This document shows positions 1-57,600 of a stretch of 64,000 bases of DNA, one piece after another. The translations under genes were made by a program, and so were the position numbers. The stretch is from Candidatus Omnitrophota bacterium (lineage in GTDB: Bacteria; Omnitrophota; Gorgyraeia; Zapsychrales; JANLHA01): the NCBI GenBank assembly GCA_963662715.1, contig OY759724.1, positions 2,266,662 through 2,330,661 of the forward strand. Direction: 5' to 3'. The notes under the pieces are model-generated. The model worked only from the letters and a program-made list of their open reading frames with translations. It made no database searches and had not been told where the DNA came from. How positions within the stretch are numbered: position 1 is the stretch's first letter; each line of letters opens with the position of its first letter.

Positions 1-3
1 CGG

Positions 4-1137
4 GTGTCTGCGGAAGTGTATCACAAAGTCATCGAAGAAAAAGGCACCTGGATTGACCGGGCTTTTGTTGTCACGGACTGGTATCTTACAGCGTATGAGC
101 CGATCAAGGATATCCGGGGCAAGATTATCGGGATCCTTTATGTCGGTATTTTGGAAAAACCTTTTCTTGCGATTCAGCAGCGGATGTTTTTAAGTCTTGT
201 GACGATTATTCTTTTGACGGCATTGCCGACCCTGGGGGTCGCGTTTCTGCTGTCGAATGTCATGATCCGTCCCTTGACCGCTTTGGCGAAAAAAAGCAAA
301 AAGATCGCCCAGGGAGATATGAAAACTTCGGTCAGCGTTGACTCTCTTATCAGGGAAATAAAGACACTGACCGTGACTTTTGATGATATGATCGAAAAAC
401 TTTCCGAACGGGAACAGACGCTCGCAGTCACCAATGACAAACTGGCGGTATTGAATAAACGTTATCTGGACCTGATCGGATTCGTGTCACATGAATTGAA
501 AGGTATTTTATCGTCGATTGTGCTTAATACCTATTTGCTGCAAAAAGGCATCCCGGGGCCGGTAAACGCAAAGCAGCAACGGGTCTTAACGTCGATGGCC
601 CGGAATCTGGACTACCTTGCCGTGACAGTTAAGAATTTTTTGAACCTCAGCCGCATTGAGAAAGATGAAATGCGGGTCGATAAACAGGATATCCTGTTCA
701 AGGAGCATGTCCTGGACACCGCCCTGGATACGTTCCAACAGCAAATTGAAGAAAAAAAGATGCGGATGGTCTGTGACGTTCCCGACAATCTGGTTATTCA
801 CGCTGATCCCGGACTTATGCAAATCGTCGTTAACAATTTGCTGAGCAATGCCTTAAAATACGGTAAGGAAGGCGGAGAAATCCGCATACGGGCGCAGGGC
901 GGTGATAAAGGGGTGGAGGCTACAGTCTATAACGACGGAATACCTATCGCCGAAGTCGACAGACAGAAGCTTTTTAAGAAATTTTCGCGCATCGTGTACC
1001 GGGGGATGGAAAAAGTCAAAGGGACTGGAATCGGGCTGTTTATCACGAAAGAAATTATTCAACGACACGGCGGGACTTTGACCGTAGAACCGGGGCTGGA
1101 AGGGAATCAGTTCCGGTTTACGATCCCTCCGGCATAA
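4..1137 (+). CDS. Sensor histidine kinase, 5'-partial. It carries the end of a Cache-like extracytoplasmic domain, a TM segment, a HAMP-like linker, HisKA and HATPase_c.
   Basis: The ORF runs in from the window edge. A hydrophobic segment (FLSLVTIILLTALPTLGVAFLL) is followed by the H-box 'FVSHELKGIL', then the N/G-box region 'NNLLSNALKYG' and 'GTGIGLFITKEIIQRHGG'. Confidence 0.85.
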   Translation: MSAEVYHKVIEEKGTWIDRAFVVTDWYLTAYEPIKDIRGKIIGILYVGILEKPFLAIQQRMFLSLVTIILLTALPTLGVAFLLSNVMIRPLTALAKKSKKIAQGDMKTSVSVDSLIREIKTLTVTFDDMIEKLSEREQTLAVTNDKLAVLNKRYLDLIGFVSHELKGILSSIVLNTYLLQKGIPGPVNAKQQRVLTSMARNLDYLAVTVKNFLNLSRIEKDEMRVDKQDILFKEHVLDTALDTFQQQIEEKKMRMVCDVPDNLVIHADPGLMQIVVNNLLSNALKYGKEGGEIRIRAQGGDKGVEATVYNDGIPIAEVDRQKLFKKFSRIVYRGMEKVKGTGIGLFITKEIIQRHGGTLTVEPGLEGNQFRFTIPPA

Positions 1138-1146
1138 AAAACATGG

Positions 1147-2040
1147 ATGAGGATTGTTATGAAAAACAAAATTTTGCTTATTGATGACGATCAGGATTTT
1201 CTTGAAGCGACGACGTTGCTTTTAGATGCTAGCGGTTACGAGGTGATCTCGGCGACAAACGGGCTGGAAGGGTTTAAGAAGGTCAAAAATGACTCTCCGG
1301 ACCTTATCCTGCTGGACATGATGATGACCTATGAAACCGAAGGCGCAGAGACGGCCAAGGCTTTTGCCGAGGACGCGACGCTTCATGATATACCGGTGGT
1401 TATGATTACCGGAGCAAAGCGCGATAAAAGCTTTCCGGTGGAATTAAGGCCGGACCAGAAGAATTTGCCGGTAAAAATGGTGTTGGAAAAACCCGTGAAC
1501 CCCGAGCGTCTGCTGAAAGTCGTGCAGATGTTTATCCGCCGTTCCGGCAATGAACACCGTCAGTTCGTAGGGGGGATTTCCGACATTGCTGCCAAATGGA
1601 AAGAGATGGACGGGAATCTTATTATGATCCTGCATGAAATTCAGAACACGTACGGTTATGTCCCCCGGGATGTTTCCTTTGAATTGAGCCGTATCCTGGA
1701 TGTGCCCCTGGCCCGGATTTATGAGGTGATCACTTTTTATAATTATTTTAAGTTAGAGCCTCCGGGGAAACATATGATCTCCGTATGCATGGGGACGGCC
1801 TGTTATCTTAAGGGCGGGGCCGAGATCCTGGAGGAGCTGAAAAATGTCCTGCATGTCGAGGAAGGCGAAACAACAAAAGACGGGTTTTTCCTCGTGCAGT
1901 CTGTCCGCTGCCTGGGGTGTTGCGGACTGGCTCCGGTGATGATGATTGACGAAAAGATATACGGGAAAGTTCAAAAGAAAGATATCGTCGATATCTTGTC
2001 ACAATATACGAATAAGGCTGATGTTCCAGCAGAAAGGTAA
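1147..2040 (+). CDS. hydC: Fusion of an N-terminal receiver (REC) domain to a NuoE-like thioredoxin-fold [2Fe-2S] subunit, the HydC subunit of the trimeric [FeFe] hydrogenase.
   Basis: N-terminus: 'ILLIDDDQDF...PDLILLDMMM...VVMITG...EKPV', with the acid pocket, phospho-acceptor Asp, and conserved Thr and Lys all present. C-terminus: 'CMGTACYLKGG...VRCLGCCGLAPVM', the NuoE/HndA four-Cys 2Fe-2S motif. Confidence 0.8.
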   Translation: MRIVMKNKILLIDDDQDFLEATTLLLDASGYEVISATNGLEGFKKVKNDSPDLILLDMMMTYETEGAETAKAFAEDATLHDIPVVMITGAKRDKSFPVELRPDQKNLPVKMVLEKPVNPERLLKVVQMFIRRSGNEHRQFVGGISDIAAKWKEMDGNLIMILHEIQNTYGYVPRDVSFELSRILDVPLARIYEVITFYNYFKLEPPGKHMISVCMGTACYLKGGAEILEELKNVLHVEEGETTKDGFFLVQSVRCLGCCGLAPVMMIDEKIYGKVQKKDIVDILSQYTNKADVPAER

Positions 2041-2045
2041 ATGAT

Positions 2046-3845
2046 ATGAAATTTTCTGTCCGTTCTGCGGGTTTGCAAACCGCAAAGAACAAAAAAATAA
2101 ACCGCATTGCCGTCGGCCTGAGTTCCTGCGGGATTGCCGCGGGAGCCAGAGAGGTGTTCCAGGCCCTGGAGCAAGAGGTTGCCTCGAAAGGTCTCGAGGT
2201 TTCTTTGACGCAATGCGGATGTGTCGGGATGTGTTATGCTGAACCGCTCATGGAAGTTTTTACCGCAGACGGTGCAAGCGTGTTATACGGGGGGGTCAAT
2301 GCGGCGGCGGCCCGGGAGATTTTACAGAGGCATATTGTCGAAGCAAATCCCTCTCACGAGGCGATCAAAAAATATGTCATAGAAATTCCTTCTAAACAGG
2401 TGCGTATCGTTCTACGAAATTGCGGGGTGATCGATCCGGAAGATATCACGGATTATATGGATCACAACGGTTATGCCGCGATTAAGAAGATATTGAAAGA
2501 TTATTCTCCCGATAAGGTTATTGAAGAATTGAAAATAAGCGGCTTGCGGGGGCGGGGAGGCGGCGGGTTCCCGACATGGATGAAATGGAATTTTGCCAGA
2601 CAGGTCTCATCAGACCAGAAGTATGTTATCTGTAACGGCGATGAAGGCGATCCGGGTGCTTATATGGACCGTAGTGTTCTTGAGGGGGATCCGCATTCCG
2701 TTTTGGAAGGCATGATGATTGCCGGATATACCATCGGAGCCAGCAAGGGGTTTCTTTATATCCGGGCGGAATATCCCCTGGCGATTGAACGCATTAATAA
2801 AGCCATCGACCAGGCCCGGCAGAGCCATTTGCTGGGAGAGAACATTATGGGAACAGATTTTTCCTTTGATCTGGAAGTCCGTCTGGGCGCGGGAGCTTTT
2901 GTCTGCGGGGAAGAGACGGCGCTTATTGCTTCGATTGAGGGCAGACGGGGATGTCCGGTTCCCCGCCCTCCGTATCCGTCGGTCAAGGGGCTGTGGGGAA
3001 AACCGACCGTTATCAATAACGTTGAGACGCTGGCCAATATTCCGGCTATTCTTGATCAGGGCGGGAACTGGTTTTCCTCCATCGGAACCGAACAGTCCAA
3101 AGGGACAAAGGTTTTCGCCCTGACCGGCAAAGTCAAGAATACCGGTCTTATTGAAGTGCCTATGGGGACGACTTTGAGAGAAATTGTTTATGATATCGGC
3201 GGAGGAATTTTGAATGACAGGAAAATCAAGGCGGTGCAGACCGGAGGTCCTTCGGGAGGCGTGATCCCGCAGGATTTCTTGGATACCCCGGTGGATTACG
3301 AAAATCTCCAAAAGCTTGGTTCCATTATGGGGTCCGGCGGGATGATCGTTATGGATGAAGATGACTGTATGATCGATATCGCGAAATTTTATTTGGGTTT
3401 TTGTGTCGATGAGTCCTGCGGGAAGTGCGCCCCTTGCCGCATCGGGGGCACACAGATGCTCAGGATACTTACAGAAATTTCTGAAGGAAAAGCTGACGAG
3501 GAAGATATCGCTAAGCTGCGCCAGCTTTCTTTGGCCATGCAGAAGGCCTCGCTTTGCGGGCTCGGCCAGACAGCCGCCAATCCTGTCTTATCGACTCTGA
3601 AGTATTTTAAAGACGAGTATGACCGTCATGTGCATGATAAAACCTGTCCGGCCGGTAAATGCCGGGGACTTTATCATTACGTTATATCCCAGGAGCGTTG
3701 CAAGCGCTGCGGGTTATGTTTGCGTCATTGTCCGACACAGGCGATCACGGGGAGCCGGGATGAGCCGTATTTGATTCACCAGGAAAAATGTATCCAATGC
3801 GGGCAGTGTTTTGAGGTTTGTAAATTTAAAGCGATTGATCGATAA
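2046..3845 (+). CDS. hydB: NuoF-like flavoprotein subunit of the [FeFe] hydrogenase, HydB. It has an N-terminal 2Fe-2S domain, FMN/NADH-binding core, a 4Fe-4S site and a C-terminal 2x[4Fe-4S] ferredoxin.
   Basis: 'CGCVGMCYAEP' (N-terminal 2Fe-2S), 'GRGGGGFPTWMKW' (NuoF FMN site), 'ESCGKCAPCR' (4Fe-4S), and 'CKRCGLCLRHCP...CIQCGQCFEVC' (two CxxCxxCxxxCP ferredoxin motifs). Confidence 0.9.
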   Translation: MKFSVRSAGLQTAKNKKINRIAVGLSSCGIAAGAREVFQALEQEVASKGLEVSLTQCGCVGMCYAEPLMEVFTADGASVLYGGVNAAAAREILQRHIVEANPSHEAIKKYVIEIPSKQVRIVLRNCGVIDPEDITDYMDHNGYAAIKKILKDYSPDKVIEELKISGLRGRGGGGFPTWMKWNFARQVSSDQKYVICNGDEGDPGAYMDRSVLEGDPHSVLEGMMIAGYTIGASKGFLYIRAEYPLAIERINKAIDQARQSHLLGENIMGTDFSFDLEVRLGAGAFVCGEETALIASIEGRRGCPVPRPPYPSVKGLWGKPTVINNVETLANIPAILDQGGNWFSSIGTEQSKGTKVFALTGKVKNTGLIEVPMGTTLREIVYDIGGGILNDRKIKAVQTGGPSGGVIPQDFLDTPVDYENLQKLGSIMGSGGMIVMDEDDCMIDIAKFYLGFCVDESCGKCAPCRIGGTQMLRILTEISEGKADEEDIAKLRQLSLAMQKASLCGLGQTAANPVLSTLKYFKDEYDRHVHDKTCPAGKCRGLYHYVISQERCKRCGLCLRHCPTQAITGSRDEPYLIHQEKCIQCGQCFEVCKFKAIDR

Positions 3846-3874
3846 ACCTGAAACTTCAGGTAGAAGGAGTTATT

Positions 3875-5620
3875 ATGGGAAAAGCAATTATTAACGATAT
3901 TCCGGTTGAGTTTGATCCGGGGATGACAATCCTGGAGGCCGCCGAGAAAGTACAGGTTAAGATCCCGAGGTTATGCTATCATCCTGACGTCAAGCCGACG
4001 GCCGCCTGCGGTATTTGTATTGTCAAATTGAAGGGGTCATCCAAGATGTTGCGGTCGTGTTGCACGCCTATTGAAGAAGGGATGGATATCATCACCCATG
4101 ATCCGCAGATCGTCGCCGTGCGCCGCACGGTGGTTGAAATGATCCTGTCCAATCATCCTAACGACTGTCTGACCTGCGGACGTAACAATAACTGTGAATT
4201 GCAGACGATCATGGCGGATTTCGGGATCCGGGAGGAAACGTTTGATAAAATTGTCCGTGATCTGCCCAAAGATACCAGCACCGGCACCATCGTCTTGGAG
4301 CCGAGTAAATGTATTAAATGCGGGCGTTGTGTCACCGTCTGCCAGGAGACCCAGAACGTCTGGGCTTTATCGTTTTTAGAGCGGGGGGTCAACACCCGTT
4401 TTGCCCCGGCCGGGGATATTTCGCTCGGTGACTCGCCGTGTGTCCGGTGCGGACAATGTTCCGCTCATTGTCCGACCGGCGCCATATTTGAATATGACCA
4501 GACACCCCGGGTCTGGGATGCTCTGCAGGACCCGGATAAAATCTGCATCGTCCAGATTGCCCCTTCGGTTCGGGTGGCCCTGGGAGAAGGTTTTGGTTTC
4601 CCTCCCGGCACAAATCTGACAAAGAAAATTTATGCCCTCCTGCGGCGTATGGGCTTCCAGGCGGTCTTTGACACCAATTTTTCCGCGGATGTCACGATTA
4701 TGGAAGAGGCGAGTGAATTTGTGGAAAGGTTTATTTACAAGAAAGGGCCTTTGCCGCTTATCACCACCTGTTGCCCGTCGTGGGTGGATTTTATGGAAAA
4801 ATTCCAGACCGACATGATCGAGCATTTCTCTTCGGCCAAATCGCCTCAGGCCATGCTGGGGGCCCTGGCTAAAACGTATTATCCGCAGAAGGAAGGCCTT
4901 GATGCGTCCAAGATTTTTATGGTCTCCATTATGCCGTGCACGGCTAAAAAATATGAAATCAACCGCAGCGACGATATGTTCTCTTCCGGGTTTCAGGATA
5001 CGGATATGGTTTTAACCACCCGGGAATTAATCCGTATGATTAAGCAGATGGGGATTGATTTTAACGAGCTGCCGGAAGAAGAACCGGACCATTTGATGGG
5101 AGACTACTCCGGAGCCGGGGTGATTTTCGGGGCTACCGGCGGGGTGATGGAAGCGGCTTTGCGCACCGCCTATTATCTGGTGACCAAAGAGAATTTGAAA
5201 GATGTGAACTTCCGTAATGTCCGGGGGTTAAAAGGGGTGAAGGAAACCTCCGTGACCATTCACGGGACGGAAATCAGAATCGCCGTGGCTCATGGACTGG
5301 TTAATGTGGAATACGTTTTGCAGAAAGTTAGAACGGCCAAAGAGAACGGAGAGCCGCTCCCTTATCATTTTATTGAAGTTATGGCCTGCCCCGGGGGATG
5401 TGTCGGCGGCGGCGGTCAGCCGTATGGCGTTAATGATGATGTGCGCAGGGCAAGAGCTCAGGGGTTGTATGAGGATGACGAGCAGAATACGGTGCGTTAC
5501 AGCCATGAAAATCCCTATATTAAGACGCTGTATGCGGAGTTCCTGGAAGAGCCTTTGAGTGAGAAGGCTCACCATCTGCTGCACACCAAATATATTCCGA
5601 GGCCAGAATATAAAAAGTAA
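3875..5620 (+). CDS. hydA: [FeFe] hydrogenase catalytic subunit HydA, of the multi-domain bifurcating (A3-like) type.
   Basis: N-terminal 2Fe-2S ferredoxin fold (CYHPDVKPTAACGIC). H-cluster motifs L1 'TTCCPSWV', L2 'MPCTAKKYE' and L3 'EVMACPGGCVGGGGQP'. C-terminal 'ENPYIKTLYAEFLEEPLSEKAHHLLHTKY' tail. Confidence 0.92.
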   Translation: MGKAIINDIPVEFDPGMTILEAAEKVQVKIPRLCYHPDVKPTAACGICIVKLKGSSKMLRSCCTPIEEGMDIITHDPQIVAVRRTVVEMILSNHPNDCLTCGRNNNCELQTIMADFGIREETFDKIVRDLPKDTSTGTIVLEPSKCIKCGRCVTVCQETQNVWALSFLERGVNTRFAPAGDISLGDSPCVRCGQCSAHCPTGAIFEYDQTPRVWDALQDPDKICIVQIAPSVRVALGEGFGFPPGTNLTKKIYALLRRMGFQAVFDTNFSADVTIMEEASEFVERFIYKKGPLPLITTCCPSWVDFMEKFQTDMIEHFSSAKSPQAMLGALAKTYYPQKEGLDASKIFMVSIMPCTAKKYEINRSDDMFSSGFQDTDMVLTTRELIRMIKQMGIDFNELPEEEPDHLMGDYSGAGVIFGATGGVMEAALRTAYYLVTKENLKDVNFRNVRGLKGVKETSVTIHGTEIRIAVAHGLVNVEYVLQKVRTAKENGEPLPYHFIEVMACPGGCVGGGGQPYGVNDDVRRARAQGLYEDDEQNTVRYSHENPYIKTLYAEFLEEPLSEKAHHLLHTKYIPRPEYKK

Positions 5621-5639
5621 CCATAAGAAGGAGGGGGTA

Positions 5640-6023
5640 ATGACAAAGAAAATATTAATGGTGGATGATGATCAGGATTTTGCCCAGGCTGTAACCGATT
5701 TGGTCGAGACTCAAGGATACACGCTGGTGTATGCGATAAACGGTGAGTCAGGTTTTCAGAAAGCAAAAGAGGACAAGCCGGACCTCATTCTTCTGGACGT
5801 TATGATGACCCATGAAACAGAAGGTTTTGATATTTCGCGCAAACTGCATGAAGAAGAAACGACGAAGAATATCCCTGTGATTGTGGTCACCGGAATCCGC
5901 AAGGAAACGGGGGTGCCGTTTAAGTATGAACCGGATGAAGTCTGGCTGCCGGTCAAGGCCGTGATTGAGAAGCCCATTGACCCGGAGAAATTTTTAAAAG
6001 TTATTGAAGAACAGCTGAAATAG
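5640..6023 (+). CDS. Stand-alone single-domain response-regulator receiver protein, a paralogue of the REC domain fused to HydC.
   Basis: 'ILMVDDDQDF...PDLILLDVMMTHETEGFD...IPVIVVTG...EKPI'. Start placed at the ATG at 5640, preceded by 'AAGGAGGGGG'. The track ORF from 5559 overlaps the end of hydA. Confidence 0.8.
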   Translation: MTKKILMVDDDQDFAQAVTDLVETQGYTLVYAINGESGFQKAKEDKPDLILLDVMMTHETEGFDISRKLHEEETTKNIPVIVVTGIRKETGVPFKYEPDEVWLPVKAVIEKPIDPEKFLKVIEEQLK

Positions 6024-6109
6024 GCTAAAAGCCGCCTGTTTCGATATCTGTCAAAAGGACAAAGCCATGAAAGGGACACCGAAATCTTTAAGATTGCCGT
6101 TGAGGTTAT

Positions 6110-7141
6110 TTGGCCGGACAAACGCCGGGAAGTCCAGTTGATGTCATGAAACAACCGGATATTTATAAAATATTATCGGCTGAAGACCCCTTGCCGGAAA
6201 TCCTGCACCGTGCAGACGCTGAACGCCAGCAACATTGCGGAGAGGATATCGTGATCCGGGGGCTTGTGGAGTTTTCCAGCCATTGTTGTTGGCAATGCCA
6301 GTACTGCGGGCTTCGGAAAGATAATTCTGACCTGGCCCGTTACCGGATGAGCTTGACAGAAATGATTGCCGCGTCACAGCAGGTTTTGGATGAGGGGATA
6401 GAAACAGTTGTTCTGCAGTCAGGGGATGATTTCGCGTTTACGCGTGAAGACGTCGGGCTGGTTATCCGGTCGATAAAGAAAAGAATGCCGAATGTGGCGG
6501 TGACGCTTTGTCTCGGGGAACGTCCGCTGGATGATTATCAGTCTTTTTTTGACAGCGGCGCCGACCGTTATCTGCTGAAATTTGAAACAGCCAATCCTTT
6601 ATTGTATCGTAAAATTCACCCTGGGCAGAATTTGATAAAACGGCTTGCGCTGTTGGAACATCTCCGCAAGATCGGATACCAGGTCGGAACAGGCGACATT
6701 GTGGGGTTGCCGGGACAAACTATAGCGGATATTGTCCAGGATCTGGAATATTTGCGGGATTTTCAGCCGGAAATGATCGGTTTGGGACCTTTTATCCCTC
6801 AGCAGCAAACTCCTTTTGCGGACTATCCTGCGCCGCCTTCGGAATTGGTCTTAAAAGTTTTGGCCCTGGCCAGGATTTTTGTCCCTAACGCGCATGTCCC
6901 TGCCACAACAGCTTTGGCGACGCTGGGAGGCGATGATCTGCAGGCCCGGGCGCTGCAAGCGGGGGCTAATGTTCTGATGGTGAATTTTTCTCCCGGCGTG
7001 CATAAAGGGCTTTACCGTTTGTATGACAATAAGGCCAGCGTTGACTTCAGCACAGCGAAGAAAATTGCTGTTTCATTGAACCGGCCATTGTCTCTGGCGC
7101 GAAATGATGCCTTGTGCCGCATGGCCGGCCAGTCTTTTTAA
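6110..7141 (+). CDS. hydE: [FeFe] hydrogenase maturase HydE (radical SAM). The start could instead be the ATG at 6146.
   Basis: 'CCWQCQYCGLRKDN...RYRM' (CX3CX2C), plus 'VTLCLGE', 'ADRYLLKFETANP', 'GLPGQTIADIV' and 'IPATTA', which match the HydE family pattern closely. Confidence 0.85.
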   Translation: MAGQTPGSPVDVMKQPDIYKILSAEDPLPEILHRADAERQQHCGEDIVIRGLVEFSSHCCWQCQYCGLRKDNSDLARYRMSLTEMIAASQQVLDEGIETVVLQSGDDFAFTREDVGLVIRSIKKRMPNVAVTLCLGERPLDDYQSFFDSGADRYLLKFETANPLLYRKIHPGQNLIKRLALLEHLRKIGYQVGTGDIVGLPGQTIADIVQDLEYLRDFQPEMIGLGPFIPQQQTPFADYPAPPSELVLKVLALARIFVPNAHVPATTALATLGGDDLQARALQAGANVLMVNFSPGVHKGLYRLYDNKASVDFSTAKKIAVSLNRPLSLARNDALCRMAGQSF

Positions 7142-7201
7142 GCGCTTCTCCCGATACTGTGGAGAAAGCTTGTCAGGGTTGGTGTCTAAGTATTTTCTTG
7201 G

Positions 7202-7230
7202 TTGACAGGGGAGATGATTTAAGGTAAAAT
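7202..7230 (+). promoter_or_regulatory. Sigma70-like promoter (TTGACA, 17-nt spacer, TAAAAT) upstream of rplS, followed by a leader of about 115 nt.
   Basis: TTGACA at 7202-7207 and TAAAAT at 7225-7230. The leader contains the hairpin 'gcgtgggaacgcac'. Confidence 0.5.
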
Positions 7231-7347
7231 TTCTCTTTACTATTCTATTGTTTTATATCATGGGAACACAATAAGTTATTGATGCGTGGGAACGCACGGG
7301 AAGCCTGGTTGAATATCTGTCCTCCAGCGAGGACATTATAAGGAGGG

Positions 7348-7704
7348 ATGAAGGTGAATAAAGGAGAAATTATTGCTCAAATTGAAAAGAAATATTTAAG
7401 ATCGGATCTGCCTAAGCTGGAAGTGGGAGATACGATCAAGATGCGGATAAAGGTCGTCGAAGCCGATAAGGAACGCATTCATCCTTTCGAAGGTTTTATT
7501 ATCCGCAAGACAGGCAGAGGGTTAAAAGGGACGTTTACTGTCCGTAAGATTTCTTATGGCGAAGGGATCGAAAGGACATTTCCCATCCATTCCCCGGTCA
7601 TTGAAAGTATTAAGGTCATAGCTAAAGGCGACGTACGGAGAGCAAAATTATACTACCTCCGTGACCGTATCGGTAAGAAAGCGCGAGTGAAAAAGAAAGT
7701 ATAA
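7348..7704 (+). CDS. rplS: 50S ribosomal protein L19.
   Basis: 118 aa with a typical L19 sequence ('FEGFIIRKTGRGLKGTFTVRKISYGEGIERTFPIHSP'). Confidence 0.93.
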   Translation: MKVNKGEIIAQIEKKYLRSDLPKLEVGDTIKMRIKVVEADKERIHPFEGFIIRKTGRGLKGTFTVRKISYGEGIERTFPIHSPVIESIKVIAKGDVRRAKLYYLRDRIGKKARVKKKV

Positions 7705-7736
7705 TATTATTTTGCCGAAGATACGATCCTGTATTT

Positions 7737-8393
7737 ATGAAATTTTCTGATATCTGCACGGCAGATATGTTCCAATTCGAAAACGAGGCTAAACACAAAG
7801 GGTTTAGCCTCGTTTTGGGTTTAGATGAAGCCGGACGCGGGCCGCTGGCCGGCCCGGTTGTCGCGGCGGCCGTGGCATTAAAATTTTTCCGGTTTACGCA
7901 AGTCATTCGTGATTCCAAGAAAATGACCCCCTTGCAACGAACACGCGCCTTTCACGACATTTATGAGAATGGATATGTCGGGGTGGGGATTGTCAGCAAG
8001 GCCGTGATCGATACGATCAATATTTCCCAGGCAACGTTCTGCGCTATGGCGAACGCGGTTTATCAATTGATTTCTTATCTCCCTGCCCCTTTGGCCCGTC
8101 CGGCTGCGCTGAAAAAGAATATGTGTCTGCTCGTTGACGGGAACCGTTTTCAGACAGATTTGCCGTATGCCTATCGGACAATTGTTTCCGGAGACGCCCG
8201 CAGCATTTCTATCGCCTGTGCTTCCGTTGTGGCCAAAGTTGTCAGAGACCGGATTCTCCTGACCTATGACCGGATTTATCCCCAGTACGGATTTAAGCAG
8301 CATAAAGGCTACCCCACGGAACAACACCGGAAAGCGCTTAAGCGTCATGGCCCTTCCCCGATCCATCGCTTGACCTATCAGAGTGGTCTATGA
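7737..8393 (+). CDS. rnhB: Ribonuclease HII.
   Basis: 'LVLGLDEAGRGPLAGPVVAAAV', the RNase HII active-site N-terminus. Confidence 0.9.
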   Translation: MKFSDICTADMFQFENEAKHKGFSLVLGLDEAGRGPLAGPVVAAAVALKFFRFTQVIRDSKKMTPLQRTRAFHDIYENGYVGVGIVSKAVIDTINISQATFCAMANAVYQLISYLPAPLARPAALKKNMCLLVDGNRFQTDLPYAYRTIVSGDARSISIACASVVAKVVRDRILLTYDRIYPQYGFKQHKGYPTEQHRKALKRHGPSPIHRLTYQSGL

Positions 8394-48645: not shown

Positions 48646-51600
48646 TTGTATATAGATATCCTCAGTAATCCAAAAAGGAGTGGTCAAATGTTCCAAATAA
48701 TTCCTAAAACGGCTCAAAAAATGTTTTCACTAGTTCTTGTAGGGATTTTCTGTGTTTATCTTGTTTTCCCTCCAATCCTAAGCGCAGAGCTATTGAAATT
48801 GCCCGATCCGGGAACAACAATTTCTTTTAGCCCGGGATATCAGCCCGCTGTCATTGCCGGGGTGGTCGTGAATTCGGAAGATCCCCTTATGTTTGATTTC
48901 ATCATTGACAGGGGGGATTCCGGTCTTCTGGGCGCGGAATTGGAAGCAGAAACGAACAAGCTTGTAAAATATTTTCTTGCTGCTTTGACAATCCCTGAGG
49001 AAGAAGTCTGGGTGAACCTTTCTCCCTATGAAAGAGAGTTGATGATTCCGTTTGCTTTGGGTATTACGGAAATGGGAAAGGATATGTTGGCCCAGGATTA
49101 TTTGCTAAAACAGATGACCGCATCCTTGACACACCCGGAATCAGAAGTGGGGAAGAAATTCTGGGAAAAAGTTTATGAGAAAGCCTATAAACTTTACGGA
49201 ACCACGGAGATCCCGATTAATACCTTCAGTAAAGTCTGGATTGTCCCGAACAATGCTGTGGTTTTGGAAAAAGACGGAACGGCTTACGTGGTTGAGAATA
49301 CCTTGAAAGTCATGTTGGAAGAGGATTATTTGGCTATTGAAAAGAACTTGGATAATACAGAAATTGGAACAGACCAGCTTACTAAGGAACGTGTGGAATA
49401 TATAAATAATTTGTCGGCAGAGATTGTTAACGAAATTATTTTGCCCGAGTTATCCACAGAAGTGAATGAGGGCAAAAATTTTGGATTAGTCCGGCAGGTA
49501 TATAATTCCGTCATCCTTGCGACATGGTATAAAGACCGGCTAAAAGAAACACTGTTAGGCCGGATTTATGTAGATCGAAACAAGGTGGCGGGGGTTGATG
49601 TCTCAGACAAGACGATAAAAGAAAAGATTTATACCCAGTACATGGATGCGCTTCGTCAAGGTGTTTACAACTTTATTAAGGAAGATGTGGCTCCGGGAAC
49701 GAACGAAACCCTTCAGCGAAGATATTTTTCCGGAGGGATCGAGTTTGCTATTAATGTTAATAAGACCAGCAGTCCGATTCTTTTGGGGCAGAAAGCTCAA
49801 AAGAATTGGAAATCCATGAGTTCTGGAATTGCTACACGGGAAAAATCTTTTGATAATGTGGAGCGATATGTCAGAGCCAGGGTTGGCCTGAATACGACAT
49901 TGCCTATTTTAACCAATACTCAGCATGTCGCTAAAACTGTTTTGCCGAATTTGAGTTATTCAGCTGTTAATGCGGCTATAGATAACTCAACCAACATCCC
50001 GGATGACAGAAAATTAGAGTTAAAGAAAGAATTTATGGCGGCTTCTCAGGAATCCAAGAGAACCGGACGCCCGATTCAGTTAAGCCAGGTGCCGGAAATG
50101 GTGAAGGAAATTGAGTTGGGAGGAGCGAGCGGCCTGACCGAAAATTTGACCGGGGTGTTGCCTACGGTAAGTCAGGATGTCGCGGTCAGTCAAGTTGACT
50201 TTGCAAAGAATGTCGTCCCTAACCTTTCGGTTCCTATGGTCAATCAAATGATTGATCAGTCCAATCTTTCAGATAATGAAAGAGTTGTTTTAAAGGCCGA
50301 ATTTAAACAAGCCAGTGATATTGCTTTGGCGGAAAAGAAACCGATACGTCTCAGTTCTCTTCCTCAATTAGTTGGGGCTTTGGACAATATAGAAAGCGGT
50401 CTGGCTGTAGAAATAAGCCGGTCCCTGCCATCTCAGAGGCCCGATGTTGTTCAGACTCAGGTGAATGTGGCCAAACAGATCATTCCGAGCGTGAGTTCCC
50501 CGCTTATTACGCAAGCGATCGAAGGATCGAATATATCGCCGGAGAGAAAAGACACGTTAAGAAAAGAGGTGCAGGCCGAGATCAGCAAAGCCACCAGCGA
50601 GAACCGGCCGATCTCATTAGCGAACATTCCGAACCTGGCGATGGACTTAGAGAAGCCGGAGACGGGGATCGCCGCCGGCATCAGCCGTGTCCTGCCGACG
50701 TCCAGTCCGCTCGTGGAAACGGAACAGGTCTCGATGGCCAAACAGATGATCCCGAGCGTGACTCCGCAGGTTATCACGCAGGCGATCACAGGCTCGAACG
50801 TAGCACCGGAGAGGAAGGATACGTTAAGAAGAGAAGTACAGGCCGAGGTGAGCAGAGCGACCAGCGAGAACCGGCCGATCTCATTAGCGAATATTCCGAA
50901 TCTGGCGATGGATTTGGAGAAACCGGAAACAGGGATCGCTGCCGGCATCAGCCGTGTAGCGCCGAAAGCAGGCCCTGAGATGAAGGCCGGTGAAGTGAAT
51001 ATAGCGAAACAGATCCTGCCTAGCCTGACGGAAGCGGTTATCACGCAGGCGATCACAGGCTCGAACGTAGCACCGGAGAGGAAGGACACGTTAAGGAGAG
51101 AAGTCGCGGCCGAGGTGAGCAGAGCGACCAGCGAGAACCGGCCGGTCTCATTAGCGAATATTCCGAACCTGGCGATGGATTTAGAGAAACCGGAAACGGG
51201 AATCGCCGCTGGAATCAGCCGTGTTTTACCTGCCTCCAGCCCTCTCGTAGAAACGGAACAGGTCACGATGGCCAAGCAGATCATTCCGAGCGTGACTCCG
51301 CAGGTTATCACGCAGGCGATCGAAGGCTCGAACGTAGCGCCAGAGAGAAAAGACACGTTAAGGAGAGAAGTGCAGGCCGAGGTGAGCAGAGCGACCAGCG
51401 AGAACCGGCCGATCTCATTAGCGAACATCCCGAATCTGGCGATGGATTTGGAGAAACCGGAAACAGGGATCGCCGCCGGCATCAGCCAGGTAGCGCCGTC
51501 CGCAAGACCTGATACAGCAGCTGCTGAAGTGAATATAGCGAAACAGATCCTGCCGAGCGTGACTCCGCAGATTATCACACAGGCGATTGAAGGCTCGAAT

Positions 51601-54600
51601 GTCGCACCGGAGAGAAAGGATACGTTAAGAAGAGAAGTGGCGGCCGAGGTGAGCAAAGCAACCAGCGAGAACCGGCCGGTCTCATTAACGAACATCCCGA
51701 ATCTGGCGATGGATTTGGAGAAACCGGAAACAGGTATCGCCGCCGGTATCAGCCGTGTTTTACCCGCGTCCAGTCCGCTCGTAGAGACGGAACAGGTCAC
51801 GATGGCCAAACAGATTATTCCAAGTGTGACTCCGCAGGTTATCACGCAGGCGATCGAAGGCTCGAACGTAGCGCCAGAGAGAAAAGACACGTTAAGGAGA
51901 GAAGTACAGGCCGAGGTGAGCAGAGCAACCAGCGAGAACCGGCCAATCTCATTAGCGAACATTCCGAATTTGGCGATGGATTTGGAGAAACCGGAGACGG
52001 GGATAGCCGCCGGCATCAGCCGGGTGGCTCCGAAAGCAGGCCCTGAAATGAAGGCCGGTGAAGTGAATATAGCGAAACAGATCCTGCCCAGCCTGACGGA
52101 AGCGGTTATCACGCAGGCGATCACAGGCTCAAACGTAGCGCCGGAGAGAAAAGACACGTTAAGGAGAGAAGTAGCGGCCGAGGTGAGCAAAGCGACCAGC
52201 GAGAACCGGCCGATTTCATTAGCGAATATTCCGAATCTGACGATGGATTTGGAGAAACCGGAGACAGGTATCGCCGCCGGTATCAGCCGTGTTCTGCCGA
52301 CGTCCAGTCCGCTCGTAGAGACGGAACAGGTCACGATGGCCAAGAATATCATCCCGAGCGTGAGTCCGCAGGTTATCACACAGGCGATTGAAACCGCGAA
52401 TGTGACACCGCAAAGAAAAGACACGTTAAGGAGAGAAGTGGCGGCCGAGGTGAGCAAAGCAACCAGCGAGAACCGGCCGGTCTCATTAGCGAACATCCCG
52501 AATCTGACCATGGATTTGGAGAAACCGGAAACAGGGATCGCCGCCGGCATCAGCCGTGTTTTACCCGCGTCCAGTCCGCTCGTAGAGACGGAACAGGTAG
52601 CGATGGCCAAACAGATCATTCCGAGCGTGACTCCGCAGGTTATCACGCAGGCGATCGAAGGCTCGAACGTAGCGCCGGAGAGAAAGGACACGTTAAGGAG
52701 AGAAGTGGCGGCTGAGGTGAGCAGAGCGACCAGCGAAAACCGGCCGGTCTCATTAGCGAACATCCCGAACCTGGCGATGGATTTAGAGAAACCGGAGACG
52801 GGGATCGCCGCCGGAATCAGCCGGGTAGCGCCGAAAGCAGGCCCGGTGACAGCAGCCGGTGAAGTGAATATAGCAAAACAGATCCTGCCCAGCCTGACGG
52901 AAGCGGTAATTACTCAGGCGATCTCAGGATCGAACGTAGCGCCGCAGAGAAAAGACACGTTAAGGAGAGAAGTGGCGGCCGAGGTGAGCAAAGCGACCAG
53001 CGAGAACCGGCCGATCTCATTAGCGAATATTCCGAATTTGACGATGGATTTAGAGAAACCGGAAACGGGGATAGCCGCCGGCATCAGCCGTGTTATGCCG
53101 ACGTCCAGTCCGCTCGTAGAGACGGAACAGATCACGATGGCCAAACAGATCATTCCAAGCGTGACTCCGCAGGTTATCACGCAGGCGATCGAAGGCTCGA
53201 ACGTAGCACCACAGAGAAAGGACACGTTAAGGAGAGAAGTAGCGGCCGAGGTGAGCAGAGCAACCAGCGAGAACCGGCCGGTCTCATTAGCGAATATTCC
53301 GAATTTGGCGATGGATTTAGAGAAGCCGGAAACGGGAATAGCCGCCGGAATCAGCCGTGTTCTGCCAACGTCCAGTCCGCTCGTAGAGACGGAACAGGTC
53401 ACGATGGCCAAGCAGATCATTCCGAGCGTGACTCCGCAGGTTATCACGCAGGCGATCGAAGGCTCGAACGTAGCGCCGGAAAGAAAAGACACGTTAAGGA
53501 GAGAAGTAGCGGCCGAGGTGAGCAGAGCGACCAGCGAGAACCGGCCGGTCTCATTAGCGAACATCCCGAATCTGGCGATGGATCTGGAGAAACCGGAGAC
53601 GGGGATTGCCGCCGGGATCAGCCGGGTAGCGCCGTCCGCCAGACCTGACACGGCAGCCGGTGAAGTGAATATAGCAAAACAAATCCTGCCCAGCCTGACG
53701 GAAGCGGTAATCACGCAGGCGATTTCAGGCTCGAATGTTGCGCCGGAGAGAAAAGACACGTTAAGAAGAGAAGTCGCGGCCGAGGTGAGCAAAGCGACCA
53801 GCGAGAACCGGCCGGTCTCATTAGCGAATATTCCGAACCTGGCGATGGATTTAGAGAAACCGGAGACGGGGATAGCCGCCGGCATCAGCCGGGTTTTACC
53901 TGCGTCCAGTCCGCTCGTAGCGACGGAACAGATCACGATGGCCAAACAGATCATTCCGAGCGTGAGTCCGCAGGTTATCACGCAGGCGATCGAAGGCTCG
54001 AACATAGCGCCGGAGAGAAAGGACACGTTAAGGAGAGAAGTCGCGGCCGAGGTGAGCAAAGCGACCAGCGAGAACCGGCCGGTCTCATTAGCGAACATCC
54101 CGAATCTGGCGATGGATCTGGAGAAACCGGAGACGGGGATAGCCGCCGGCATCAGCCGTGTTATGCCGACGTCCAGTCCGCTCGTAGAGACGGAACAGAT
54201 CACGATGGCCAAACAGATCATTCCAAGCGTGACTCCGCAGGTTATCACGCAGGCGATCGAAGGCTCGAACGTAGCACCACAGAGAAAGGACACGTTAAGG
54301 AGAGAAGTAGCGGCCGAGGTGAGCAGAGCGACCAGCGAGAACCGGCCGATCTCATTAGCGAACGTCCCGAATCTGGCGATGGATTTAGAGAAACCGGAGA
54401 CGGGGATCGCCGCCGGAATCAGCCGGGTAGCTCCGAAAGCAGGCCCGGTGACAGCAGCCGGTGAAGTGAATATAGCAAAACAGATCCTGCCCAGCCTGAC
54501 GGAAGCGGTAATTACGCAGACGATTTCAGGCTCGAACGTAGCACCGGAGAGAAAAGACACGTTAAGGAGAGAAGTGGCGGCCGAGGTGAGCAAAGCGACC

Positions 54601-57600
54601 AGCGAGAACCGGCCGATCTCATTAGCGAACATCCCGAATCTGGTGATGGATTTGGAGAAACCGGAGACGGGGATCGCCGCCGGAATCAGCCGTGTTCTGC
54701 CGACGTCCAGTCCGCTCGTAGAGACGGAACAGGTCACGATGGCCAAGCAGATCATTCCGAGCGTGAGTCCGCAGATTATCACGCAGGCGATCTCGGGCTC
54801 GAATGTTGCACCACAGAGAAAAGACACGTTAAGGAGAGAAGTGGCGGCCGAGGTGAGCAGAGCGACCAGCGAGAACCGGCCGATCTCACTAGCGAACATC
54901 CCGAATCTGGCGATGGATCTGGAGAAACCGGAGACGGGGATAGCCGCCGGAATCAGCCGTGTTATGCCGACATCCAGTCCGCTCGTAGAGACGGAACAGG
55001 TAGCGATGGCCAAACAGATCATTCCGAGCGTGACTCCGCAGATTATCACTCAGGCGATCGAAGGCTCGAACGTAGCACCACAGAGAAAGGACACGTTAAG
55101 GAGAGAAGTACAGGCCGAGGTGAGCAGAGCAACCAGCGAGAACCGGCCGATTTCATTAGCGAACATCCCGAATCTGGCGATGGATTTAGAGAAACCGGAA
55201 ACGGGGATAGCTGCCGGGATCAGCCGGATAGCTCCGAAAGCAGGCCCTGAGACGAAAGCCGGGGAAGTGAATATAGCAAAACAAATCCTGCCCAGCCTGA
55301 CGGAAGCGGTTATCACGCAGGCGATTTCAGGCTCGAACGTAGCGCCGGAAAGAAAGGACACGTTAAGGAGAGAAGTACAGGCCGAGGTGAGCAGAGCGAC
55401 CAGCGAGAACCGGCCGATCTCATTAGCGAACATCCCGAATCTGGCGATGGATTTGGAGAAACCGGAAACAGGGATCGCCGCCGGAATCAGCCGTGTTATG
55501 CCGACGTCCAGTCCGCTCGTAGAGACGGAACAGGTCACGATGGCCAAACAGATCATTCCGAGCGTGACTCCGCAGGTTATCACGCAGGCGATCGAAGGCT
55601 CGAACGTAGCGCCGGAAAGAAAGGATACGTTAAGGAGAGAGGTGCAGGCCGAGGTGAGCAGAGCGACCAGCGAGAACCGGCCGGTCTCATTAGCGAACAT
55701 CCCGAATCTGGCGATGGATTTGGAGAAACCGGAGACGGGGATCGCCGCCGGCATCAGCCGGGTGGCGCCGTCCGCAAGACCAGATACAGCAGCTGCTGAA
55801 GTGAATATAGCAAAACAGATTCTGCCCAGCCTGACGGAAGCCGTGATTACGCAGGCGATCTCAGGCTCGAACGTTGCACCACAGAGAAAAGACACGTTAA
55901 GGAGAGAAGTACAGGCCGAGGTGAGTAAAGCGACCAGCGAGAACCGGCCGATCTCATTAGCGAACATCCCGAATCTGGCGATGGATTTAGAGAAACCGGA
56001 AACGGGGATCGCCGCCGGCATCAGCCGTGTTATGCCGACGTCCAGTCCGCTCGTAGAGACGGAACAGGTCACGATGGCCAAACAGATCATTCCAAGCGTG
56101 ACTCCGCAGATTATCACGCAGGCGATCGAAGGCTCGAACGTAGCGCCGGAAAGAAAAGACACGTTAAGGAGAGAAGTGGCGGCCGAGGTGAGCAAAGCGA
56201 CCAGCGAGAACCGGCCGGTCTCATTAGCGAACATCCCGAACCTGGCGATGGATCTGGAGAAACCAGAAACAGGGATCGCTGCCGGCATCAGCCGGGTAGC
56301 GCCGAAAGCAGGCCCTGAGATGAAAGCCGGTGAAGTGAATATAGCAAAACAGATCCTGCCCAGCCTGACGGAAGCGGTAATTACGCAGGCGATTTCAGGC
56401 TCGAATGTTGCGCCGGAGAGAAAAGACACGTTAAGAAGAGAAGTACAGGCCGAGGTGAGCAAAGCGACCAGCGAGAACCGGCCGATCTCATTAGCGAACA
56501 TCCCGAACCTGGCGATGGATTTAGAGAAACCGGAGACAGGGATCGCCGCCGGCATCAGCCGTGTTCTGCCGACGTCCAGTCCGCTCGTAGAGACGGAGCA
56601 GGTCACGGTGGCCAAACAGATCATTCCGAGCGTGAGTCCGCAGATTATCACGCAGGCGATCGAAGGCTCGAACGTAGCACCACAGAGAAAAGACACGTTA
56701 AGGAGAGAAGTGGCGGCCGAGGTGAGCAAAGCGACCAGCGAGAACCGGCCGATCTCATTAGCGAACGTCCCGAATCTGGCGATGGATTTAGAGAAACCGG
56801 AGACGGGGATCGCCGCCGGCATCAGCCGGGTCGTCCCTGCATTAACTTCTCAAGTTTCTTCAGAACGTATTTCAACTGCACAGGATATGGTTCCTAACCT
56901 CAGCCCGGCTATTATTGCAGACGCAATCAATACTGCCTCGTTGCCGGAAGCTGCTCGTCGGGAATTGCAGCAGGAATTTGAGCCTGTGAGCCGGAAAGCT
57001 TTATCAGAAGGCAAAACGGTTGAGATGAAGAATTTGCCTAAATTGGCAGCTGCTATTAATAATCCCACAACGAGGATAGCTGAAAATTTATTGAGAAATG
57101 TTCCTGCAACACCTTCGGTGGAAACTCAGGCGATGCAAATTGAATCAGTTAAAGCGATCCTGCCTCAACTTTCATCACCGATAGTCGCTCAGGCGATCAG
57201 TGAATCCAATCTTTCGGAACAAGAGCAGGTCGATTTGATCGGTAAATTTACGGTCGCAAGTAATTTGGCCGAGAAAACCGGACGTTTCGTTGACATTAAT
57301 GCGATCCCCGGGCTTGTTCAGGCCATTGAAAAACCGGATACCGGATTAGCTCTTCAATTAGCCAAAGCCGTTCCTACCAAATTGGAATCCGCCGTGAATA
57401 AGCAGAATTTAAAAGTGAATACGCTTTCTTCTTTAGCCAATCAGACGAGAGAGCTTGATGCTTTATTCAGAAAAGCGCCTGATATTGGAGCCAGGGAAAG
57501 AGAGCAGCTTATTCAGGAGATTCAGCAGCTCAAGAGAACAGGCGGTCTGTCGGATATTAAGAAATTCCGTTCACAAGCATCACCGGAACTTTTAGCCCGG

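Follow-up and report, generated by a model that had tools for sequence, protein, structure and literature searches.

A receiver domain fused to the HydC subunit of an Omnitrophota [FeFe] hydrogenase is a candidate target of the adjoining Cache-domain histidine kinase

Gene content of the hydrogenase operon

The DNA analyzed here (the window) is a stretch of 64,000 nucleotides (nt) from contig OY759724.1 of assembly GCA_963662715.1, Candidatus Omnitrophota bacterium, and all gene coordinates refer to it. Genes were assigned from a listing of open reading frames (ORFs) and from Pfam and NCBIfam profile searches. Positions 1 to 7141 hold six genes, all on the plus strand: a sensor histidine kinase gene (3′ part only), a gene that joins a two-component receiver domain (REC) to the NuoE-like hydrogenase subunit HydC (REC::hydC), hydB, hydA, a stand-alone receiver gene (REC2), and hydE. 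A preliminary description, made from the sequence alone, had placed every one of these genes correctly, and only small corrections to the coordinates of REC2 and to the start of the fusion were needed. Judged from sequence, the operon and its relatives point to a trimeric HydABC hydrogenase that may be controlled directly by its own two-component module, through the receiver fused to HydC; we regard this reading as about evenly poised between right and wrong.

1..1137, plus strand: sensor histidine kinase, 3′ two-thirds (Pfam); the 5′ end lies beyond the window edge
1159..2040, plus strand: REC::HydC fusion, 293 amino acids (PF00072 and PF01257 in one ORF; identical to database protein P0001)
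1159..1542, plus strand: fused receiver domain, amino acids 1 to 128 (acceptor set D10, D11, D53, T84, K111)
1501..1599, plus strand: continuous helix from receiver alpha5 into the HydC bundle, amino acids 115 to 147 (DSSP on the AlphaFold2 model)
1570..2019, plus strand: NuoE/HydC-like domain, amino acids 138 to 287 (phmmer against the Protein Data Bank [PDB], Foldseek, four [2Fe-2S] cysteines)
2046..3845, plus strand: HydB, NuoF-like, flavin mononucleotide (FMN)/NADH (Pfam, NCBIfam)
3875..5620, plus strand: HydA, catalytic [FeFe]-hydrogenase subunit (NF040763, Fe_hyd_lg_C, Fe_hyd_SSU, H-cluster motifs)
5640..6023, plus strand: REC2, stand-alone receiver, 127 amino acids (Pfam, ribosome-binding site and start codon)
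6110 (or ATG 6146)..7141, plus strand: HydE radical-SAM maturase (TIGR03956)

The kinase stop codon lies 21 nt before the start of REC::hydC, and the intergenic gaps in the hydrogenase operon measure 5 to 86 nt. HydB (599 amino acids) contains the NuoF core (PF01512), SLBB (PF10531), and NADH_4Fe-4S (PF10589) domains and Fer4 at residues 545 to 596; its two ends show a weak thioredoxin-like match (N terminus) and a ferredoxin domain with two [4Fe-4S] clusters (C terminus). HydA contains PF02906, PF02256, PF13510, and PF10588, scores 794 bits (cut-off, 765) on NF040763 (FeFe_hydrog_A6, “NADH-dependent [FeFe] hydrogenase, group A6”), and carries the H-cluster motifs L1 to L3 as TTCCPSW, MPCTAKKYE, and EVMACPGGCVGGGGQP. 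HydE scores 307.6 bits on TIGR03956 (cut-off, 254.6). BfuB-type subunits are defined by a NuoF FMN domain, SLBB, a NuoF 4Fe-4S domain, and a ferredoxin-type 4Fe-4S domain (PMC9304861), and HydA, HydB, and HydC of the window each show the features of group A3/Bfu-type subunits. The predicted product of the operon is thus a group A3/Bfu-type HydABC [FeFe] hydrogenase accompanied by a two-component module of its own. In many relatives, the thioredoxin-like [2Fe-2S] region that opens HydB here (window 2046-2400) is encoded by a separate gene of about 115 codons, for example, at 8891-9241 of L002 (L-numbers denote related loci and P-numbers proteins matched in database searches).

The REC::HydC fusion protein

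The fusion is encoded in an ORF at 1147..2040, with the ATG at 1159, 5 nt behind GAGGA, as the probable start and the ATG at 1147 as the alternative. The complete N-terminal receiver that had been ascribed to the NuoE-like subunit is present, in a protein that is likely to have 293 rather than 297 amino acids. Pfam places Response_reg at residues 9 to 126 (expect value [E], 4e-17) and 2Fe-2S_thioredx at residues 145 to 287 (E, 1e-48), and P0001, a database protein from a 3.36-Mb contig, is identical over the whole length. The HydC and BfuC chains of solved structures have only 154 to 189 amino acids, none with a receiver, so that the extra length of the window HydC is a real difference.

A search of a 5.8-billion-protein collection, clustered at 90% identity, returned at least 120 clusters with PF00072 and PF01257 in one protein of 274 to 317 amino acids; among the matches listed with a source name, nearly all came from Omnitrophota metagenome-assembled genomes (MAGs) and one from “Aureabacteria.” We also collected 164 related loci from species-representative genomes and metagenomes, with ORFs called in 165 sources, and found REC::hydC as a single ORF on 34 independent contigs. 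The connector between the receiver and HydC domains is conserved in an alignment of 120 fusion sequences.

Searched against the PDB with phmmer, REC::HydC matched 7T2R_C best (E, 6e-41), followed by matches to 8A6T_C, 7Q4V_C, and 7P5H_C that, like the first, begin at query residues 138 to 141, corresponding to residues 10 to 36 of the solved HydC chains. Foldseek superposed the HydC part on the solved chains with TM-scores (normalized to the target) of 0.80 to 0.87, and the [2Fe-2S] cysteines C210, C215, C251, and C255 are invariant in the 120 aligned sequences. In an AlphaFold2 monomer model (mean predicted local distance difference test [pLDDT], 87; predicted TM-score [pTM], 0.69), alpha5 of the receiver and the opening helix of the N-terminal bundle of HydC form one helix (residues 115 to 147, DSSP).

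The fused receiver and REC2 of the window both read DDDTK at the acceptor positions, the complete two-component acceptor set. The set DDD[TS]K is present in 98 of the 120 aligned fusion proteins (82%), K111 is invariant, and D53 is replaced in 11 sequences (by His in six, Asn in three, and Glu in two). At the position of alpha4 (residues 85 to 106), the fused receiver has an irregular segment with a conserved aromatic or proline patch, ending in a conserved LPVK just before beta5 (L103, P104, and V105 are 88 to 94% conserved); AlphaFold2 models this segment as almost wholly nonhelical, at a block pLDDT of 62 to 73.

Joint loss of the kinase and the acceptor aspartate

The kinase matched Pfam sCache_3_3 (Cache_3-Cache_2), HAMP, HisKA, and HATPase_c, with HisKA and HATPase_c above their cut-offs, and its translation holds an H-box (SHELK), an N-box (NNLLSNALKYG), and G-boxes (NDG and GTGIGL). 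These domains and motifs confirm the claim of a Cache-domain histidine kinase immediately upstream of REC::hydC. The part inside the window covers the end of the extracytoplasmic Cache domain, the second transmembrane segment, HAMP, HisKA, and HATPase_c, and matches the full 610-amino-acid kinase of L081 with 730 bits. In the latter, hydrophobic segments at about residues 8 to 32 and 294 to 318 flank a Cache region of about 260 residues, which suggests that the kinase senses an extracytoplasmic signal.

For a census of kinases, ORFs from the 165 sources were labeled by phmmer against the window proteins, and acceptor residues were read from an hmmalign alignment. A kinase of the same Cache/HAMP/HisKA type stands directly upstream in 21 of the 23 fused loci that keep the acceptor Asp, ending 4 to 233 nt before the fused gene, and in none of the six in which this Asp is replaced (L004, ADETK; L082, GDNTK; L098, DDNTK; L101, SDEVK; L102, SDSLK; L103, NDSLK). 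Fisher's exact test of kinase adjacency against the acceptor Asp gave p = 6e-5, which is only indicative for related loci. Separately called gene tables with Pfam labels concur for L081, L082, and L084. The nearest outside relatives of each degenerate group, compared by their NuoE part alone, keep the Asp, which points to at least six separate losses; the kinase is absent in all five of these groups with visible context. A kinase that has the fused receiver as its substrate would be expected to disappear together with the Asp in this way. The survey of fusions and adjoining kinases that the preliminary description had called for thus turned up a widespread fusion whose kinase accompanies the Asp, and this co-inheritance is established by observation, as are the gene content, the fusion, and the intact catalytic and acceptor residues.

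Glu takes the place of the acceptor Asp in three independent losses (L004, L093, and L101; proteins P0035 and P0042), and Asn, Ser, or His in the remaining ones. Glu for Asp is the classical phosphomimetic replacement, and the Glu-bearing receivers might be locked in an activated state.

In unfused relatives, hydC has a separate receiver gene as its neighbor, with a product of the same alpha4-less subfamily. This gene lies 8 to 123 nt upstream of hydC in nine loci (L006, L013, L022, L024, L095, L104, L108, L128, and L130), and a separate receiver stands directly downstream of hydC in L013, L022, L024, and L128, in clusters of the order long HydB-HydA-HydC-REC. The split and fused forms would constitute Rosetta-stone support for a kinase-receiver-hydrogenase unit. 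Neither the window operon nor that of L081, nor the examined flanks of the 21 kinase-bearing fused loci, contain a gene for a DNA-binding response regulator. Co-inheritance, fusion and fission, and this lack of a DNA-binding regulator together strongly suggest, at the level of sequence, that the pairing of kinase and receiver is dedicated to the enzyme.

Two tandem hydrogenase clusters with one common kinase in between were observed in L006 (1136-12445), L104 (166-10259), and L095 (1-8974), in the order (rex-)REC-hydC-hydB (about 400 amino acids)-hydA (about 630 amino acids)-kinase-REC::hydC-hydB-hydA. The short HydB of the first cluster lacks the C-terminal part, and this cluster may therefore be of a nonbifurcating type. 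At L152 (2812-6438), hydCBA lies behind a kinase gene and a gene for a 460-amino-acid receiver-containing protein, an arrangement that resembles a classical transcriptional pair.

Receivers on NuoE-like subunits in other lineages

A profile search of 1.84 billion representatives at 50% identity returned more proteins in which REC is fused to NuoE, with receivers of the ordinary type that have an alpha4 (P0129, P0139, P0145, P0165, P0189, P0232, P0243, P0156, P0201, and P0203); those listed with a source name are from MAGs of Thermodesulfovibrionales, Dissulfurispiraceae, and Deltaproteobacteria or Pseudomonadota. In P0141 (578 amino acids), the REC-NuoE unit occurs twice in tandem, the first NuoE copy apparently without the cluster cysteines. 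P0189 adjoins a NuoF-like gene; P0232, whose receiver is degenerate, has genes for a NuoF-like protein, the alpha subunit of a formate dehydrogenase, and FdhD as neighbors. At L165 (7001-13568), from a Dissulfurispiraceae MAG, a REC-NuoE fusion with a degenerate receiver and no acceptor Asp heads a cluster of NuoF-like, formate dehydrogenase alpha subunit, and FdhD genes, which indicates that receivers on NuoE are not limited to hydrogenases. With receivers of other types found on the NuoE-like subunits of other NuoEF enzymes in other phyla, the design appears to be a recurrent one. P0172 and P0208 were considered as fusions of the reverse order (NuoE-REC) and dropped, their sequences being tandem REC-REC.

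The REC-NuoE architecture is already present in databases (the automatic JGI annotation of some members reads “NuoE / CheY-like”), and we found no paper that discusses it: full-text searches for a receiver fused to HydC or NuoE, which included the cryo-electron microscopy (cryo-EM) papers on HydABC and PMC11406978, PMC8542988, PMC10066038, PMC3362086, and PMC9304861, returned none. The name “BfuD” was followed as a lead and set aside, as the consulted passages of PMC11406978 contain neither a definition of it nor a mention of a receiver.

The transcriptional layer and flanking genes

L081, whose fusion protein is 88% identical to that of the window, has the gene order rex-kinase-REC::hydC-hydB-hydA-REC2-hydF-hydG-hydE, with the stop codon of rex overlapping the start of the kinase gene. 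A rex gene lies directly upstream in the relatives L081 (7458-8147), L004 (509-1222), L086, L006, L150, and L101; in L004 and L101, it stands directly ahead of REC::hydC, at the usual place of the kinase. A palindrome resembling a Rex box precedes rex, perfect in L004 (TTGTGA-N6-TCACAA; TTGTGAAAATATTCACAA) and with one mismatch in L081. By analogy with these loci, rex probably lies just upstream of the window in this genome as well, and the two-component link probably operates alongside redox control of transcription. The preliminary description had started from the premise that trimeric [FeFe] hydrogenases are normally regulated transcriptionally or through a separate HydS sensory hydrogenase. 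The transcriptional part of this premise agrees with the rex genes of the relatives, and its exclusivity would give way to a two-component link alongside.

In the region between REC2 and its downstream neighbors, L081 (14862-18667) has REC2-hydF-hydG-hydE and the window (6024-7347) only hydE and rplS after REC2. On the 3′ side of hydE, the window continues with rplS, rnhB, and further housekeeping genes, and no additional receiver, kinase, hydF, or hydG gene was found across its 64 kb. A promoter and terminator scan of positions 1 to 8000 gave counts close to the shuffled expectation, with the best promoter-like site at 7202, ahead of rplS. Far from the operon, at 48646-57864 on the plus strand, lies a single ORF of 3,072 codons that looks repetitive; its match to the PrkA C-terminal domain (184 bits summed) is fragmentary, with no single stretch passing.

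REC2, a second hydrogenase-associated receiver

The second receiver gene, noted earlier between hydA and hydE, is there, and its true coordinates are 5640..6023: the start is the ATG at 5640 behind the ribosome-binding site AAGGAGGGGG, not that of the longer ORF from 5559. REC2 has a single PF00072 match and the acceptor set D10, D11, D53, T84, and K111, and its ungapped alignment with the fused receiver, of 123 amino acids, shows 49% identity. Among solved structures, RR468 (E, 2e-17) and DivK (E, 1e-13) match it best. On the NCBIfam profile DVU0259_DivK it reaches 79.6 bits, below the cut-off of 160, and it is therefore placed outside that family. By sequence, REC2 fits the definition of a single-domain response regulator, consisting of a receiver only with an intact acceptor site.

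Receivers placed after hydA form a clade of their own (mean identity, 56% within the clade and 41% to fused receivers), and all have intact acceptor sets. Orthologues of REC2 follow hydA in L002, L008, L009, L013, L081, L085, L096, and L150, and the gene is present in 7 of 15 kinase-bearing and none of 6 kinase-less fused loci (p = 0.06). L150 (rex-hydC-hydB-hydA-REC) has a REC2 type with neither a fusion nor an adjoining kinase, and each of three sampled REC2 homologues (L167 to L169, from MAGs labeled Lentisphaerae, Planctomycetes, and WOR-3) belongs to an [FeFe]-hydrogenase or hydEFG cluster. The proposal that REC2 acts as a phosphate sink or competitor of the fused receiver is weakened by this distribution: a pure sink is unlikely, because REC2 types form their own clade and stand in hydrogenase clusters without a fusion or an adjoining kinase. 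From the sequences compared, REC2 is best described as a hydrogenase-associated receiver in its own right.

At L167 (1-8313; MAG labeled Lentisphaerae), the same Cache kinase is followed by a plain hydC, a gene for a HydB of 1,026 amino acids, hydA, and three stand-alone receiver genes. This HydB is fused to a module of the pyridine-nucleotide-disulfide-oxidoreductase type (Pyr_redox_2/Fer4_20).

Proposed mechanism

At its N terminus, HydC forms a bundle of four helices close to where HydB and HydA meet, and its C-terminal [2Fe-2S] domain moves from a “HydC-in” to a “HydC-out” position and back, gating electrons between FMN and the ferredoxin branch (Katsyv et al., PMC10021017). The C1 cluster of BfuC has been called “the gate or switch” (Schut et al., PMC9304861), and HydC has been proposed as the conformational gate of bifurcation from cryo-EM and simulation (PMC10021017, PMC9304861).

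We propose that the membrane kinase would detect an external ligand with its extracytoplasmic Cache sensor and phosphorylate Asp53 of the receiver on the N terminus of HydC. The resulting change could reach the N-terminal bundle of HydC by way of alpha5, a mechanical coupling suggested by the model, in which this helix continues without a break into the bundle; alternatively, docking of the receiver on HydB or HydC could be altered. Either route might bias HydC toward “in” or “out” and turn the flow between FMN, C1, and the ferredoxin branch up or down, the net effect being posttranslational control of H2 production or uptake. REC2 would be a second, diffusible receiver of the same subfamily, acting on the hydrogenase or its maturation, and an upstream rex would add NADH-dependent transcriptional control in close relatives and probably here.

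In this scheme, we infer phosphotransfer as well as what the signal acts on and which way it acts. The earlier suggestion that phosphorylation acts directly on the enzyme holds up as far as a conserved kinase-receiver-hydrogenase unit is concerned, given the co-inheritance and the published role of HydC as a proposed gate, and is weakened where it assigns REC2 the part of a sink. That electron flow or assembly is directly controlled seems to us to have roughly an even chance. We hold more tentatively, with the balance somewhat against it, the specific version in which the phosphorylated receiver locks the HydC gate “in” or “out” upon an extracellular ligand sensed by the Cache domain, and in which alpha4-less receivers would be general hydrogenase regulators of Omnitrophota and neighboring lineages.

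Several points weigh against control through the fused receiver. Two loci, L084 (NDDSK) and L100 (DDDAK), keep the acceptor Asp without an adjoining kinase. The Fisher p value overstates the support because the contexts are phylogenetically nonindependent. The fusion persists after loss of both Asp and kinase, so that part of the receiver's role would seem to be phosphorylation independent. The alpha4 region, usually part of the output face, is replaced, and the model is of low confidence there. Finally, the evidence drawn on for this reading is gene order, residue conservation, and one monomer model.

Alternative explanations

Retention of the fusion in at least six groups without the acceptor Asp, and in kinase-less loci, would also be expected if the fused receiver were mainly a structural or assembly module that stabilizes or oligomerizes HydABC, with the kinase signaling chiefly to REC2 or to an unlinked regulator. 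The replaced alpha4 output face is in line with such a role, as is the degenerate receiver of P0232 on the NuoE-like subunit of a formate dehydrogenase cluster. A purely structural module would, however, leave unexplained why the five-residue acceptor site is complete in 82% of the family, with K111 invariant, and why the kinase is missing exactly where the Asp is lost, as expected for a kinase substrate; the three replacements by the phosphomimetic Glu likewise suggest that the activated state matters. We consider a mainly structural role unlikely.

We give about the same low credence to signaling in the reverse or a sideways direction, in which the redox state of the HydC [2Fe-2S] cluster would modulate phosphorylation of the receiver and phosphorylated REC2 would be the real output, acting, for example, on HydF/E/G maturation or on a target outside the operon. 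REC2 does usually stand between hydA and hydF, hydE, or hydG, forms a distinct orthologous group nearest to RR468 and DivK, and occurs without a fused receiver in L150, L167, and L168. Its presence in only 7 of the 15 kinase-bearing fused loci, however, indicates that the module works without it, the unfused receivers in nine loci adjoin hydC and not the maturase genes, and NuoE domains are not known to serve as sensor inputs.

Ordinary transcriptional control, with a DNA-binding regulator encoded elsewhere as the partner of the kinase, the receivers of the operon as side branches, and gene neighborhood as a sign of nothing more than shared regulation, appears less probable still. The 64-kb window is a small part of a 3.36-Mb contig, and L152 offers an example of a kinase and a 460-amino-acid receiver-containing protein upstream of hydC. 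Against this stand the flanks of the 21 kinase-bearing fused loci, in which no such regulator was seen, the relatives' own dedicated transcription factor, Rex, and the joint loss of kinase and acceptor Asp, which transcriptional control leaves unexplained.

A sequencing frameshift or misassembly joining two genes, the flaw on which the preliminary description had made the fusion depend, is excluded for practical purposes, even though other genomes do have the receiver and hydC as two consecutive genes, because the single ORF recurs in the 120 or more clusters and on the 34 contigs, which stem from many samples and assemblers, because its helical linker is conserved, and because the exact protein is on record (P0001).

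Significance and comparison with known systems

Anaerobic communities depend on electron-bifurcating hydrogenases for their H2 balance, the switch between making and consuming H2 is largely unexplained, and current mechanistic models of bifurcation rest on the moving HydC domain. If control of the HydC gate through the fused receiver proves true, this would be the first two-component system with the bifurcation gating step as its output, uncultured Omnitrophota would couple cytoplasmic redox disposal to an external chemical cue, and a phospho-switch on HydC would offer a handle for trapping gate states and testing conformational gating. The joint loss of kinase and Asp and the existence of split and fused forms make the hypothesis directly testable with recombinant proteins.

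The closest known systems are the HydABC/Bfu enzymes (Thermotoga maritima, 7P5H; A. woodii, 7Q4V; T. kivui, 8A6T), which have the same three subunits, domains, and cofactor-binding motifs, a co-located hydE, and a HydC to which the HydC part of the window protein aligns over the full length (E, 1e-31 to 1e-38). The HydC proteins solved or described to date have no receiver, and the chains of these three enzymes are 156 to 189 amino acids long, whereas that of the window has about 137 extra N-terminal residues, comprising the receiver and a helical connector.

For Ruminococcus albus and Thermotoga, Zheng et al. (cited in PMC9304861) reportedly proposed in 2014 that HydABC is regulated by HydS, a group C sensory hydrogenase, together with a kinase and phosphatase. 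That system likewise ties phosphorylation signaling to a trimeric hydrogenase operon; it differs in that the sensor here is a histidine kinase with an extracytoplasmic Cache domain and the enzyme itself carries the phospho-acceptor. No PAS sensory hydrogenase, Ser/Thr kinase, or PP2C was found among the six proteins of the operon, and no further HydA-like ORF in the window.

Hydrogenase operons controlled by Rex are known from Firmicutes and Thermotogae, and the relatives L081, L086, L004, L006, and L150 likewise have rex directly upstream, but Rex alone accounts for neither the kinase nor the receivers.

Among response regulators, those of the CheB, PleD, and RpfG types have enzymatic outputs, and CheY, DivK, and RR468 are single-domain regulators; in both groups, as proposed here, the receiver acts on an attached or bound effector without binding DNA. 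The receivers described here differ from both groups in belonging to a subfamily without a canonical alpha4, and from the CheB, PleD, and RpfG types in that the partner is an iron-sulfur subunit of a multisubunit redox enzyme, not a self-contained catalytic domain. The arrangement is thus a variation on two known kinds, receiver-controlled enzymes and regulated HydABC hydrogenases, rather than a new category.

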